Positions 18,096 through 48,851 of a stretch of 64,000 bases of DNA are shown here, piece after piece. The stretch covers positions 564 to 64,563 of the forward strand of contig CANQVB010000001.1 in assembly GCA_947627225.1 (NCBI GenBank). The letters run 5' to 3'. The notes beneath the pieces were generated by a model. The model was not told the origin of the DNA. It searched no databases and saw only the letters and a program-made list of their open reading frames with translations. Position 1 is the first letter of the stretch; each line of letters begins with the position of its first letter. The translations under genes and the position numbers were made by a program. Source of the stretch: an uncultured Bacilli bacterium (GTDB lineage Bacteria; Bacillota_I; Bacilli_A; RF39; UBA660).

Positions 18096-18122
18096 CGTAA
18101 CTAAAGCATGTTACGTTTTTTT
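18096..18122. terminator. Bidirectional intrinsic terminator between convergent genes
   Basis: The hairpin aacgtaac-taaagcat-gttacgtt has an A tract on one side and a T tract on the other. Confidence 0.6.
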
Positions 18123-19045
18123 AAAATATAAGCAACAAGAACCGAAAGGGCAATCGAAATGAGTAACAAATAAATAAACGCCATAGGGTTCGTTCCAAGA
18201 GCACCTAAATCAACATTCATACCCATAAAAGAAGCAACCATCGTTGGAATGGAAAGCACAATGGTTATTCCTGCTAAAAATTTCATAATTGTATTTAAGT
18301 TATTAGAAATAATGGTCGCCACGGTATCCGTCATACTTTCTAAAATGCCTCGATACAAATCAGCCATAGAAATGGCCTGGTTATTTTCAATAATGGCATC
18401 TTCTAAAAGCTCTTGATCTTCCTCATAAAGAGAAATCACATTTCCTTTAAAAATTCGATCTAAAACAGCTCCATTTGATTGCAGTGCTGTAATCACATAC
18501 GTTAAACTATTCTCAAGTGCTAAGAGATTAAGCAGTTCCTCGTTTTTTGTCGCAGACATCATCTTTCCTTCTGCGATTCCAATTTTACGACTAATTTCTC
18601 TTAAAATTTTAAGATACGTAATGGCAACACGATACACAATTTGAATCGTAAAGCGACTTTTTTTATACGTGTAAAATTCTTTGACTTTTCCTTTAGAAAA
18701 ATCATTTAAAATCGGTGTCTTTTGACTCGCAATTGTGACCACATAATCATCTCGAACTAAAAGAATTCCAAGCGTTGCTGTTTTGGTAAGCTCCATCCCA
18801 TTTTCTTTGGATACCGTTGGAATATCCAAAAGAATAGCTTTACAACCATCTTCTTCGTCAATTCTTGGTTTTTCATCATCATCTAAGACGCTTTGCATAA
18901 ATTCTTTATCCACTAAAATCGTACGGGAAACTTGCTCCAACTCTTCTTCCGTTGGATCAACGAGTTCAATCCATGCGCCTGTAGTAATTTGATCAAGCAC
19001 CTCAAAAGTACCCGTTTTTAAATCACTGTTATAAATTTTCATCAT
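18101..19045 (-). CDS. corA: CorA family magnesium/cobalt transporter
   Basis: The 314 aa product has a C-terminal two-TM region containing the FMGMNV (GMN) signature. Confidence 0.85.
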   Translation of the reverse strand: MMKIYNSDLKTGTFEVLDQITTGAWIELVDPTEEELEQVSRTILVDKEFMQSVLDDDEKPRIDEEDGCKAILLDIPTVSKENGMELTKTATLGILLVRDDYVVTIASQKTPILNDFSKGKVKEFYTYKKSRFTIQIVYRVAITYLKILREISRKIGIAEGKMMSATKNEELLNLLALENSLTYVITALQSNGAVLDRIFKGNVISLYEEDQELLEDAIIENNQAISMADLYRGILESMTDTVATIISNNLNTIMKFLAGITIVLSIPTMVASFMGMNVDLGALGTNPMAFIYLLLISIALSVLVAYILKKRNML

Positions 19046-19094
19046 AAAAATACCCCTCGCTTTTTCCTAAATATAGGCTTTTTTTTAGAGCTTG

Positions 19095-20588
19095 TCAAGA
19101 AGAGTAGCTTTTATTTTTTGTTGGTTTTGTATAATAAGACGCAATCATTTTCTTAGCAAGTGGCGTTTTACAATTATTGAGTGCTTGTTTAGGAGGAAGT
19201 GTTTTTTTTGGCCAAAAAGAAACGGCAATCTCATCTTTATCCTGTAAAATTGTCGAAGGAGAAACAAATTCTCCATCCCGTGTTGCTTCTTTAAAATGAA
19301 CCAATTCATCTTCCCCTAATTTACAAAGCAAATCCCAAATGGTAGAATTTTTAGGAAGTTCTTGCTCACTACCATCCATAAGAGTAATGTAGATATTACG
19401 TGTCAATATTTGATCTTGTAAGGCTTGATAAAATTCCATATCATCTGGAATCAATTCATCTAATACTTGTAATGTTTTATAAAATTGCAGTTGTTCTAAG
19501 GCCTGTTTCATAGATGGATTTTGTTTTAAAGAATATACACAGATTCCCTTTCTAGCATACTCGATCATATCAAAAGTTTTTATTTGCACCTGATACTGCA
19601 TACCCGTTTTATCATTCCCTGTGGTATGAAAAGCCTGATATCCTGTTGTCTTTGGAGAAGCAATATAGTCTTTCATCCGGTAGTGGATTGGAGTGATTAT
19701 TTGATGTATTTTTTCAAGAGAAGCGTAGCAATCTGCAATCTGTTTAACTCCTACTTTGATGGAGTAAAGATCGTGGATTTGATCATAGGAAAACCCTTCT
19801 TTTTCTTTTTGAGAGATGGCATAAATATTTTTAAGACGAAAATAAATCTGGCTTTGAATATCCTTGCTCAAAAGTGCTTTTTCTATCTCACCCATTACTT
19901 GTTTGTGATGAGGCAAGGTTTTTTGAAGAAGATTTTCTCTTAATTTCGCAATTTCAGAATACTTTTGCGCATCTAAGCAATGAAAACTTCGATCTTCTAA
20001 TACATACTGAATCACACCGCAACCTAAATTTTTTGCCATTGGCACAAAAATATCGAGTGTCTCCTTTGCATTTTCAATTTGTTTTTCTCTTTTTTTCTTT
20101 TGCTCGATTGTGGTCATGTTATGCACTCTATCAAGAAGCTTAATGAAAAAAACTTCGGGTGCAAAATGAATAAAAGAACGAAAAAGTTTACTCGTATTAT
20201 GTGCCTGTTTCTCTTCGCGTGAAGAAAACCCCTTTAATTTGGTAACACCATCTACATAAGAAGCAACTTCTACTCCAAAATATCCTTCAATTTGTTCTAA
20301 AGTCAAAGCTGTATCTTCCACCGTATCATGCAGTAAACAAGCCATAATAACAGGTGCAGAAAGTCCAAGACATGTTGCATAAAGAGCCACCATGAAAGGA
20401 TGAATCATATAAGGCTCTCCACCTTCTCTTTTTTGACCTTCATGCATTTCTTTCGCAAGAAAATAGGCTTTTGAAATTTCTTTTAAGGAAGATGTTTCTA
20501 AATAGGAACAGTTTTGTAATAGCAACTTTAAATCTCGTTCATCATGATGATAGAAGACACTTTTCTTAACCATTTCTCTTAAATCCAT
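19095..20588 (-). CDS. Short RelA/SpoT homolog (HD hydrolase, synthetase and TGS domains; no C-terminal ACT/RRM region)
   Basis: HD domain: HPFMVALY...LLHDTVEDT...VDGVTKL. Synthetase region: KLLDRVHNMTT, ETLDIFVPMAKNLG and YIASPKTTGYQAFHTT. A TGS-like C-terminus is present. At 497 aa it is shorter than the roughly 730 aa long RSH proteins. Confidence 0.75.
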   Translation of the reverse strand: MDLREMVKKSVFYHHDERDLKLLLQNCSYLETSSLKEISKAYFLAKEMHEGQKREGGEPYMIHPFMVALYATCLGLSAPVIMACLLHDTVEDTALTLEQIEGYFGVEVASYVDGVTKLKGFSSREEKQAHNTSKLFRSFIHFAPEVFFIKLLDRVHNMTTIEQKKKREKQIENAKETLDIFVPMAKNLGCGVIQYVLEDRSFHCLDAQKYSEIAKLRENLLQKTLPHHKQVMGEIEKALLSKDIQSQIYFRLKNIYAISQKEKEGFSYDQIHDLYSIKVGVKQIADCYASLEKIHQIITPIHYRMKDYIASPKTTGYQAFHTTGNDKTGMQYQVQIKTFDMIEYARKGICVYSLKQNPSMKQALEQLQFYKTLQVLDELIPDDMEFYQALQDQILTRNIYITLMDGSEQELPKNSTIWDLLCKLGEDELVHFKEATRDGEFVSPSTILQDKDEIAVSFWPKKTLPPKQALNNCKTPLAKKMIASYYTKPTKNKSYSS

Positions 20589-20692
20589 AATAACCCTCCG
20601 AAAACAAAAAAAGACTCAACAGCAAAAGGCTTTGAGTCCACAAAAAAGCGGCAAGATGCAAGGATTTTATCTAAATCAATCCAATAACCCAT
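20579..20692 (-). CDS. Putative 37-aa leader peptide ORF upstream of rsh; it overlaps the rsh start codon
   Basis: The SD GGAGG lies 8 nt before the ATG at 20692. The ORF (MGYWIDLDKILASCRFFVDSKPFAVESFFVFGGLLWI) ends TGGATTTAA, overlapping the ATGGATTTA start of the downstream gene. It encloses an intrinsic terminator. Confidence 0.25.
   Translation of the reverse strand: MGYWIDLDKILASCRFFVDSKPFAVESFFVFGGLLWI
20606..20640 (-). terminator. Intrinsic terminator (GACTCAA...TTGAGTC plus U7) inside the leader ORF, between the DUF2752 gene and rsh
   Basis: The minus strand reads ggactcaaagccttttgctgttgagtcttttttt. A TTGACA-16-TATGAT promoter-like element lies just upstream at about 20720..20750 on the minus strand. 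Confidence 0.55.
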
Positions 20693-20767
20693 ACAAACCG
20701 CCTCCTTAAGATTATTACAATCATATCACTTTCTATGATTTTGTCAAGATACGTTTACCTTGTTTTT

Positions 20768-21184
20768 TTAAGAAAAGAAGAAAGCAAGATGATAGATATA
20801 ATAAACAACGGTAATGCCTGCTGTTACACTAAAAAGAACCGGAAAAGGTTTGATTTTAAGTGGTTTGATATAGCGATCTATTAAAAATAGTAGTATTGAT
20901 AAAACCCAAAAAATTGCTGTAGGGTTTGCTTGCAGTGACTTTCCTATTTTTCCCTGTAACAAGTAGATACAAGCATGGGTTAGTCCACAACCAGGACAAG
21001 GAATATGGGTAAGTGCTAAAAAAGGGCAAACCGTATTAAATAGTCTCTGCATCACAACGACATAAAGTACGAAGATGGGTAAGATTCTTACAAGATGCAA
21101 AACATCATTTTTGAAAAGCGCTTTTCGTTCTATATCCATAGTTTTAGTAATAATAGTTATAGAAGGAAGATGCATAAGCACCAA
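20768..21184 (-). CDS. DUF2752 domain-containing membrane protein
   Basis: It has the CPGCGLTHA motif (the CPxCGxTR family hallmark) plus multiple TM segments. Confidence 0.65.
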   Translation of the reverse strand: MVLMHLPSITIITKTMDIERKALFKNDVLHLVRILPIFVLYVVVMQRLFNTVCPFLALTHIPCPGCGLTHACIYLLQGKIGKSLQANPTAIFWVLSILLFLIDRYIKPLKIKPFPVLFSVTAGITVVYYIYHLAFFFS

Positions 21185-21584
21185 ACCATAACATAAAAAT
21201 CAAAACTAGAATTGCCACTACAATGAACATACAAAAGTATGATCTAGCAAAGTTTTTCAAATTGACATTTTGTGTTCCTCCAAATGCAAATACCAAAAGT
21301 AAAATAATGCCAACGCATGGAATCATAAATAGAAGTTCATATCCGAAGTAGCCCCACATACTAATTGGCTTATATTCTGCCGGAACATTGCCTTGTGACC
21401 AACTTGTTCTTTCATTTGCTTTGTATTGTGGGGCTGGTGCTACTTGTTCTTTTCTATTTGCTTGGGGTCTTGTTGGCGCACCACAATAATTACAGAACAT
21501 AGAATCTTCTTCAATTTGTTTCCCACAAGAAGCACAAAAACGCATCTTGCCTTTCTCATTTCCTTTTTGACTTACATCACTCAT
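21144..21584 (-). CDS. Zinc-ribbon domain-containing membrane protein
   Basis: The N-terminal CASCGKQIEEDSMFCNYCGAP is a Cx2C-x10-Cx2C zinc ribbon, and there are two C-terminal TM segments. It overlaps the downstream DUF2752 gene by 41 nt. Confidence 0.55.
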   Translation of the reverse strand: MSDVSQKGNEKGKMRFCASCGKQIEEDSMFCNYCGAPTRPQANRKEQVAPAPQYKANERTSWSQGNVPAEYKPISMWGYFGYELLFMIPCVGIILLLVFAFGGTQNVNLKNFARSYFCMFIVVAILVLIFMLWFGAYASSFYNYYY

Positions 21585-48687: not shown

Positions 48688-48769
48688 GAACATTCAATAT
48701 GCCGTGTTGAGTGTAGCCAATGTTTGGTTCCACCTAATTCAAAGCAGTTGAGTTAGGTGGATTTTTTTT
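48688..48769 (+). ncRNA. Putative antisense sRNA convergent to the M1 small ORF
   Basis: A plus-strand TTGTCA...TAAAAT promoter-like element lies at about 48652..48681. A conserved block ggaacattcaatat...gttgagtgtagcc is followed by the hairpin ccacctaa...ttaggtgg (48730..48760) and a T8 tract. Confidence 0.3.
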
Positions 48770-48851
48770 ATATCAATACTATAAAAAGTAAAAATAATAA
48801 AAGGAAGATAATGATAATTAAAGATAGTATTAAAAAATCTTTCTTATGCAT
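48768..48851 (-). CDS. Small hydrophobic peptide (27 aa, MHKKDFLILSLIIIIFLLLFLLFIVLI), putative type I toxin (module M1)
   Basis: The SD GGGAGG precedes the ATG. The peptide is near-identical to the 11917..12000 peptide, and the whole roughly 350-bp module is conserved. Confidence 0.4.
   Translation of the reverse strand: MHKKDFLILSLIIIIFLLLFLLFIVLI

Follow-up and report, generated by a model that had tools for sequence, protein, structure and literature searches.

A conserved leader open reading frame and intrinsic terminator upstream of a truncated rsh gene in uncultured Bacilli: a candidate ribosome-occlusion attenuator

In an uncultured Bacilli bacterium (contig CANQVB010000001.1), the gene rsh, which encodes a truncated long RSH protein, is preceded by a compact leader of about 130 nucleotides (nt) comprising a promoter, a short open reading frame (ORF) with a strong Shine-Dalgarno sequence (SD) and an intrinsic terminator. 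Since this layout is shared by diverged leaders it is not a product of chance, and the leader is very probably a real switch that ties transcription of rsh to ribosome activity. The mechanism we favour, with a confidence somewhat better than even, is a conserved transcription attenuator of the ribosome-occlusion kind known from pyrBI and tlrB, in which efficient translation of the leader would result in read-through into rsh. The window, as the term is used here, is the whole 64-kb stretch of DNA that was analysed, and all coordinates of leader and rsh refer to its minus strand. An earlier note on this DNA had already proposed a translation-dependent attenuator at this site. This interpretation is borne out in part, namely with respect to the conserved architecture and the assignment of the hairpin to rsh, whereas the overlap with the rsh start and the Trp codons or peptide, to which the note had also pointed, did not prove to be general. 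A feature absent from that note is the sequestration of the leader SD and AUG in a conserved hairpin, termed P1. The parts of the leader in the window are as follows:

20742-20747, minus strand: -35 hexamer TTGACA of the leader/rsh promoter; TTGAC(A/T) stands at the same relative position in 13 of 13 leaders
20720-20728, minus strand: extended -10 element TG-A-TATGAT (hexamer 20720-20725), separated from the -35 hexamer by a 16-nt spacer; 11 of 12 consensus positions matched
20701-20707, minus strand: SD1, the leader SD, AAGGAGG, 8 nt 5' of the ATG at 20690-20692
20579-20692, minus strand: leader ORF, 37 codons plus TAA (20579-20581), passing through the terminator and sharing 10 nt with the start of rsh
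20641-20708, minus strand: hairpin P1, SD1 and AUG paired with downstream leader sequence, as predicted from folding and compensatory changes
20641-20652, minus strand: pyrimidine-rich 3' strand of P1, GCCGCUUUUUUG (anti-SD tract), read as Cys-Arg-Phe-Phe in the leader ORF
20613-20639, minus strand: intrinsic terminator hairpin, GGACUCAAAGC-CUUUU-GCU(G)UUGAGUC, about -10 to -12 kcal/mol
20606-20612, minus strand: U7 tract of the terminator, followed by GUUUU to 20601
20594-20599, minus strand: SD2, the rsh SD, GGAGGG, 5 nt 5' of the rsh ATG at 20586-20588
19095-20588, minus strand: rsh, truncated long RSH of 497 amino acids with HD_4, RelA_SpoT domain and weak TGS

Promoter, SD, ORF and terminator were all found where the earlier note had placed them, the promoter additionally carrying the TG of an extended -10 element. 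This promoter, with its 11 of 12 consensus positions, is the joint best of 24 promoter-like matches in a 7-kb scan, and transcription is predicted to start near A20713. The terminator hairpin is present, but its stem as first written was too short, and the leader TAA, formerly located on the rsh initiation codon, instead sits 5 nt past the rsh ATG, the two ORFs overlapping by 10 nt. The window leader peptide, MGYWIDLDKILASCRFFVDSKPFAVESFFVFGGLLWI, contains two Trp and six Phe residues, which agrees with the two Trp and several Phe reported before.

The comparison encompassed 13 distinct leaders located 5' of short RSH genes, six of which (including that of the window) belong to clade 1 and seven to clade 2. 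The leaders are highly diverged although the loci are related, and the RSH proteins behind the 12 other leaders share just 35-63% identity with the window RSH. All 13 leaders follow a common plan consisting of a TTGAC(A/T) promoter, a strong SD with ATG, an ORF of 17-41 codons, an intrinsic terminator with U-run, and the SD and ATG of rsh. In the five other clade-1 leaders, TTGACA is separated by 17 nt from the -10 element and GGAGG by 7-8 nt from the ATG of an ORF of 17-41 codons, while the 3' part comprises the pyrimidine tract, the hairpin with its U-run, and the rsh SD and ATG. Likewise, the clade-2 promoters (7/7 loci) feature TTGAC(T/A), a 17-nt spacer and a -10 element, in part extended; SD1 reads (A)GAGG(T/C)GA or GGTGGTGA and is followed after 4-7 nt by ATG, the leader ORFs comprise 18-27 codons, and the terminator with its U5-8 precedes SD2 and the rsh ATG, which lie 23-27 nt on. 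Across both clades, GGAGG or GAGG(T/C)G of the SD1 type is located 4-8 nt 5' of the ATG and the hairpin is succeeded by 5-8 U in every one of the 13 loci; moreover, the terminator 5' arm GAYUCAA is found in both clades. The conservation that the earlier note had suggested looking for in relatives is thus present, since promoter, SD, ATG, terminator-reaching ORF and terminator are kept in 13 of 13 leaders, and the combination that the note had named as speaking against attenuation, a terminator kept after loss of the ORF or SD, was found in none of them. The near-identical contigs of one species (L003/4/6/7) carry identical leaders and are hence uninformative on variation. Two pairs of near-identical contigs from different samples do differ: L097 and L098 by a single base of the leader, which exchanges a Tyr for a Phe codon in the leader ORF, and L099 and L100 in the rsh SD, GGGAGG versus GTGAGG.

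The two clades differ in how they were reached. Close homologues of the window RSH are confined to five clusters (49-63% identity, 488-499 amino acids), and the next protein matches, at about 37% identity, are to full-length Rel of 730 amino acids; a scan of the genome collection with an alignment of full-length RSH gave, among the matches listed, only distant full-length Rel genes. A weak match of a covariance model, built from the six clade-1 leaders, 5' of L094 led to clade 2, the RSH of which has 35% identity to that of the window. Scanning of a metagenome with a subfamily-specific segment yielded seven loci, four with ordinary full-length Rel and three with clade-2 short RSH (L094, L095 and L096); four diverse members were fetched in addition to the latter. 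A protein search starting from L096 returned more than 100 clusters of short RSH with 459-504 amino acids. The covariance model detected no convincing extra copy of the leader in the window and 27 other loci (best E = 0.07). Neither the window nor 250 kb of related loci yielded a further copy, and when 202 GGAGG-ATG sites in 744 kb of collected sequence were screened for the architecture, rsh leaders alone were recovered.

The course of the leader ORF relative to the terminator is equally regular. Up to the hairpin, the frame set by the ATG is open in 13 of 13 loci, while the +1 and +2 frames stay open in 0/13 and 3/13, respectively. In dinucleotide shuffles an open ATG frame was obtained at rates of 0.17-0.60 per locus, the product of which, 10^-6.65, overstates the significance because the loci are related. 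The stop codon lies inside the hairpin in ten loci, 4 nt before it in one, and beyond it, overlapping rsh, in two (the window and L003), and all 13 stops are within the ribosome footprint of the terminator stem. Hence, a ribosome translating the ORF to its end would cover the 5' arm of the hairpin. Translational coupling into the rsh start, which the earlier note had read from the window, is limited to the two loci with overlap, the usual arrangement being a stop inside the hairpin. In E. coli, terminators less than about 27 nt from a stop codon are repressed by ribosomes (PMC4824070).

In contrast to this architecture, the leader peptide is free to vary: neither its sequence nor its length (17-41 residues) nor the Trp codons stressed by the earlier note are conserved across the 13 loci. 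Regulatory codons were therefore rejected as a candidate, given that Trp is unconserved, that there is no conserved run of codons for a single amino acid, and that Phe codons, which are restricted to clade 1, fall on the anti-SD tract there. Furthermore, no conserved nascent-peptide arrest motif was found in the leader peptides, R/K-X-R/K being present in only a few.

The position of the terminator makes it an obligatory passage for the polymerase. The distance from the hairpin to the rsh ATG is 19-40 nt in 12 of the 13 loci, and this gap contains neither a promoter match nor room for one; at the remaining locus, L009, the distance amounts to 251 nt, within which no plus-strand promoter match was found. 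The L009 gap owes its size to about 250 nt of additional sequence (positions 983-1232 of that locus) between the leader terminator and rsh. Since no promoter fits between terminator and rsh, the gene must be transcribed through the terminator, and transcription of a gene through a conserved canonical terminator is a hallmark of regulated termination.

When folded individually, each of the six clade-1 leaders adopts two hairpins, P1 and the terminator, with z values of -2.2 to -4.8 for the whole leader. P1 alone attains -14 to -18.7 kcal/mol (z -2.4 to -4.2) in these leaders; that of the window is predicted at -18.7 kcal/mol (z = -2.4) with an SD pairing probability of at least 0.98. The partner of the leader SD and AUG in P1 is the pyrimidine tract together with the codons preceding it. 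Throughout clade 1, the pairing probability of SD1 is no lower than 0.85, and 6/6 leaders have the A of the AUG in a pair. An equivalent of P1 occurs in all six clade-1 and most clade-2 leaders, the pairing probability of SD1 being at least 0.64 in six of the seven clade-2 loci. Compensatory changes are present in P1, for instance an exchange between G-C and A-U at the third nucleotide past GGAGG. Opposite the constant AUG, the pairing partners of its region differ from locus to locus, which marks the AUG as the constrained side of the helix. Both helices were recovered by RNAalifold, the terminator likewise with compensatory changes. In the model-fitted alignment of the six sequences, 89.7% of the cells are paired compared with 52-67% with slid partners; double-sided changes affect six pairs, a number reached by 2 of 500 shuffles, and the covariation score is 0.43 versus 0.29 (0 of 500 shuffles). 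Coming from six sequences in an alignment that was fitted to the structure, this covariation is supporting evidence, not proof.

A classic antiterminator was considered as well and rejected, since neither masking of a ribosome footprint along the ORF nor folding of the nascent RNA gave a consistent alternative structure. With the footprint masked, the terminator was lost only once the P site had reached about codon 16 or later. In nascent RNA the terminator 5' arm was mostly free, its mean probability of pairing to sequence further upstream being 0.02-0.51, and weak pairing of this arm with the freed pyrimidine tract was seen in some loci only. As there is no antiterminator alternative, occlusion by the ribosome is the only evident route past the terminator. 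Folding with SD1 masked further indicates that the anti-SD tract can reach over the terminator to pair with the rsh SD, and a second, translational layer of control through this pairing is thus possible.

From these observations we infer translation of the leader ORF, obstruction of the hairpin by the ribosome, a rise of read-through with the efficiency of leader translation, and the physiological signal behind it. In the sequence of events that we envisage, transcription would start from the strong sigma-70-type promoter about 10 nt 5' of the strong SD and ATG. A ribosome loading before the pyrimidine tract, some 50 nt downstream, has emerged would translate the short ORF behind the RNA polymerase. 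Given that the ORF reaches to 4 nt from the hairpin, into it or beyond, this ribosome would cover the hairpin 5' arm, the hairpin would be blocked, and the polymerase would continue into rsh. On the other hand, if the ribosome is late or lags behind, P1 would close on the leader SD and AUG and block later initiation, the terminator would form, and transcription would end about 25 nt before rsh. Hence, P1 would act as a gate, in that a ribosome must load ahead of the emergence of the pyrimidine tract or else the leader is locked. The leader peptide itself would have no role in such a mechanism, and what counts would be the act of translation.

Several points weigh against this mechanism. P1 hides the very SD and AUG of the leader and so opposes efficient translation; the mechanism would need either a kinetic window or pausing of the polymerase. 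RNA polymerase outruns the ribosomes in B. subtilis and other species, a situation termed "runaway transcription" (PMC13323073), and simple coupling is for this reason doubtful among Bacilli, except with the aid of a pause like that of tlrB. One candidate pause site, a T-rich, TTNTTT-like tract on the P1 3' strand, is shared by the six leaders of clade 1 and not evident in those of clade 2. At the clade-2 locus L097, sequestration of SD1 is weak, with a pairing probability of 0.31. Finally, the 13 loci are statistically non-independent, and the pair counts are drawn from six sequences on a structure-fitted alignment.

The rival that survives best retains the ribosome but reverses the default. 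Termination would be the rule, the ribosome having completed the ORF and departed by the time the polymerase arrives at the U-tract, and read-through would require a ribosome to linger on the final codons or on the stop codon in the hairpin, be it through amino-acid starvation, a translation inhibitor or slow release, each of which could be the cause; rsh would then be induced by translation stress and not by translation proficiency. We consider this sensing of stalled ribosomes unlikely, albeit worth serious attention. Its logic equals that of the experiment-based tlrB model (PMC6851288) and of the mechanisms proposed for vmlR, hflXr and msrD; in 10/13 loci the stop codon is situated within the hairpin, the site at which a lingering ribosome would have the greatest effect, and Phe codons stand just 5' of the hairpin in 6/6 clade-1 leaders. 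These Phe codons, however, are accounted for by the U/C-rich composition of the anti-SD tract and are missing from clade 2. Stalling is further disfavoured by the lack of a conserved arrest motif (R/K-X-R/K) or a conserved run of codons for the same amino acid in the leaders, by the extension of the ORF far past the hairpin in two loci, and by the nature of the downstream gene, which is not a resistance gene.

Less probable still is an attenuator that works through RNA alone or through a binding factor, or a constitutive "dimmer", in which P1 and the terminator would be functional, possibly as the target of a protein or small RNA, or simply as a means of fixing a low read-through from a strong promoter, while the SD-like purine run would be kept for pairing with the pyrimidine tract alone and the ORF would stay untranslated. 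The strong pairing of SD1 and AUG in 12 of the 13 leaders, the compensatory changes in P1 and the unconserved peptide would all suit such an element. Nevertheless, an untranslated RNA would not be required to keep an ATG 4-8 nt after the SD in 13/13 loci, nor to keep precisely the ATG frame open to the hairpin (13/13 versus 0/13 and 3/13), nor to hold the AUG fixed while its partners change. In addition, the P1 loop contains no conserved sequence for a ligand pocket or a protein site. Rfam 15 gave no match at the gathering score in the window, L001, L002, L003, L008 or L009, and a permissive Rfam scan produced chance-level matches only.

The surroundings of the leader bear on two further explanations. 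Across the loci, the genes upstream of the leader encode YetF, FTHFS, DUF2752, valS or a radical SAM protein, while the leader stays with rsh; in the clade-1 relatives, the synteny of rsh and corA is kept, the upstream genes vary (YetF, FTHFS or others), and the Zn-ribbon and DUF2752 genes that separate YetF from rsh in the window are lacking. Whichever gene precedes it, the leader unit is always located directly 5' of rsh on the same strand. In principle, promoter, SD, ORF and terminator add up to a complete minimal gene, which could encode a small protein or small RNA of its own, rsh being served by leakage of the terminator or by an unrecognised promoter. Several hydrophobic leader peptides and the distance of about 250 nt between the unit and rsh at L009 would accord with such an independent gene. 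We nonetheless regard it as very improbable, as the peptide is conserved neither in sequence nor in length and is in some loci too short for a membrane span, as the unit accompanies rsh irrespective of the gene upstream, as no promoter match was found between terminator and rsh even at L009, and as neither the window nor 250 kb of related loci gave another copy. A type I toxin or conserved small protein was ruled out on the ground that the peptide is unconserved. Mere coincidence, by which the hairpin would be nothing but the terminator of the DUF2752 operon, it being the first terminator past the DUF2752 stop at 20768, and ORF and SD would be chance features of an AT-rich spacer in which short ORFs are common, was entertained in the earlier note and has next to no probability left, because relatives without the DUF2752 gene and with other upstream genes keep the whole leader, which assigns the hairpin to rsh, because the upstream valS at L103 has a separate terminator of its own, and because the conservation over 13 loci is statistically supported.

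Among characterised systems, occlusion of the terminator as favoured here for rsh resembles E. coli pyrBI and pyrE most closely in its layout, which comprises a leader ORF running into or through an intrinsic terminator, no antiterminator, and a U-rich stretch 5' of the terminator, the latter in the clade-1 rsh leaders. A close-following ribosome prevents formation of the hairpin in pyrBI (PMC4824070), which is only proposed for the rsh leader. The two differ in their hosts, enterobacteria versus a low-GC uncultured bacterium, and in the regulated gene, which is one of pyrimidine synthesis rather than RSH, evidence for sensing of UTP being lacking for the rsh leader. Moreover, the rsh leader sequesters its own SD and AUG in a hairpin, and its stop codon usually lies inside the terminator hairpin, whereas it follows the hairpin in pyrBI and pyrE.

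The B. subtilis tlrB (yxjB) leader offers a parallel from a Firmicute, featuring a leader peptide with SD, an intrinsic terminator and a downstream SD. According to the tlrB model, a ribosome at the end of the leader ORF blocks the base of the terminator, a proposal resting on induction that needs leader translation, ribosome stalling and NusG-dependent pausing (PMC6851288). This pausing buys the ribosome time for loading, and further rounds of leader translation are kept down by a hairpin (PMC6851288), to which P1 may be likened. On the contrary, tlrB, vmlR, hflXr and msrD are resistance genes with conserved arrest motifs that respond to ribosome-targeting antibiotics, while the rsh leaders lack such a motif and precede an RSH gene, and the rsh leader has no evident counterpart of the tlrB hairpin in which the main gene's SD is sequestered. 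The classic amino-acid attenuators (trp, his, leu, phe, thr and ilv) have in common with it that a short leader ORF decides on formation of a terminator before a structural gene. They differ by mutually exclusive antiterminators (2:3 versus 3:4) and runs of cognate codons, neither of which is consistent in the rsh leaders, and in that translation to the stop codon favours termination there but should oppose it in the rsh leader.

The target gene itself departs from long RSH in two respects. Firstly, the product comprises HD_4, the RelA_SpoT domain and a weak TGS, yet none of the C-terminal helical, Zn-finger/CC or ACT/RRM domains, and it covers positions 1-459 of the 687 of TIGR00691, scoring below the cut-off of the model. 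The ATG at 20588 is taken as its start, the SD lying 5 nt upstream and M1 being invariant in the homologues (alignment A1). The public gene call (492 amino acids) begins five codons later at the internal ATG 20573. Secondly, catalytic residues, read from alignment to solved Rel structures and full-length Rel, indicate that the hydrolase motifs of the HD domain (HD...ED, RxxGEPY, HP) are invariant in alignments A1 and A5, while the catalytic Glu of the synthetase (LE[IV]QIRT; E319 of SpoT) is replaced by Gln333 in the window, by Gln in 6/6 clade-1 proteins (YQVQIKT), and by Lys in clade 2. The motif MH..AE.G.AAHW.YK, which follows the catalytic site, is degenerate in the clade-1 proteins. SpoT E319Q is the classic synthetase-dead allele, in which hydrolase activity is retained (PMC6085430), and long RSH that are hydrolase-only and carry a pseudo-synthetase domain are already known (PMC9974481). 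With the catalytic Glu replaced and the HD motifs intact, the window RSH is thus probably a hydrolase-only enzyme with a pseudo-synthetase domain, and the label "synthetase/hydrolase" of the earlier note is doubtful. No second RSH gene was found in the window.

At the protein level, A. baumannii SpoT is alike as a hydrolase-only long RSH with intact HD motifs and a degenerate synthetase site (PMC9974481), and Bacillus RshC is alike in its truncation after TGS (PMC3153485). Both comparisons concern the protein, the activity of which is predicted from sequence in the case of the window, and not the leader. Clade-2 short RSH, of about 460-500 amino acids, contain HD, a degenerate synthetase domain and TGS.

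The C-terminal domains of long RSH normally sense starvation by binding starved ribosomes, and RSH enzymes are in general thought to be controlled at the protein level by ribosomes, tRNA and partner proteins. Since the window RSH lacks both these ribosome-sensing domains and the synthetase Glu, expression of a (p)ppGpp hydrolase is likely tied to the current translation capacity of the cell. A leader-ORF attenuator 5' of an RSH gene would add a transcriptional, ribosome-dependent layer to stringent-response control; in the literature collection searched, queries directed at an attenuator or leader ORF in front of rel or rsh brought up no description of such an element. As the class of mechanism is already known, the interest lies in the target, an RSH without ribosome-sensing domains and probably without synthetase activity; the leader occurs precisely where the enzyme has lost the former and probably the latter. 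It is tempting, if rather speculative, to suppose that the ribosome-sensing role of long RSH has moved from the protein to the mRNA, the pioneer ribosome on the leader ORF setting the amount of (p)ppGpp hydrolase at the terminator. If true, alarmone turnover would be set by translation capacity via attenuation instead of allostery, and, because (p)ppGpp inhibits translation initiation, a feedback loop would arise between the alarmone level and hydrolase expression. With more than 100 protein clusters in clade 2, the leader seems to extend across a large set of uncultured low-GC bacteria, and it bears on the question of whether proximity of ribosome and polymerase can regulate genes in Bacilli-like organisms.

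Some observations on the neighbouring DNA may be added. Between YetF and rsh, the window contains two genes for small membrane proteins on the minus strand, one with a Zn-ribbon (21144-21584) and the DUF2752 gene (20768-21184), which overlap by 41 nt; both are missing in the relatives L001 and L003 and look like a genome-specific insertion. Downstream of rsh, corA (18101-19045) is present in all clade-1 loci. A promoter-like element, TTGACA-17-TATATT (11/12 consensus positions; 19070-19098, minus strand), is located over the rsh stop codon just 5' of corA, which may hence combine a promoter of its own with read-through from rsh. In clade 2, rsh lies downstream of or near valS in four of the seven fetched loci, and at the four loci for which genes were called, the next gene encodes a protein of about 730 amino acids without Pfam match. 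Elsewhere in the window (48768-48851, minus strand), GGGAGG and, 7 nt on, ATG precede a very hydrophobic ORF of 27 codons, MHKKDFLILSLIIIIFLLLFLLFIVLI, which surfaced solely as a weak match of the covariance model and could represent an unannotated small membrane protein.

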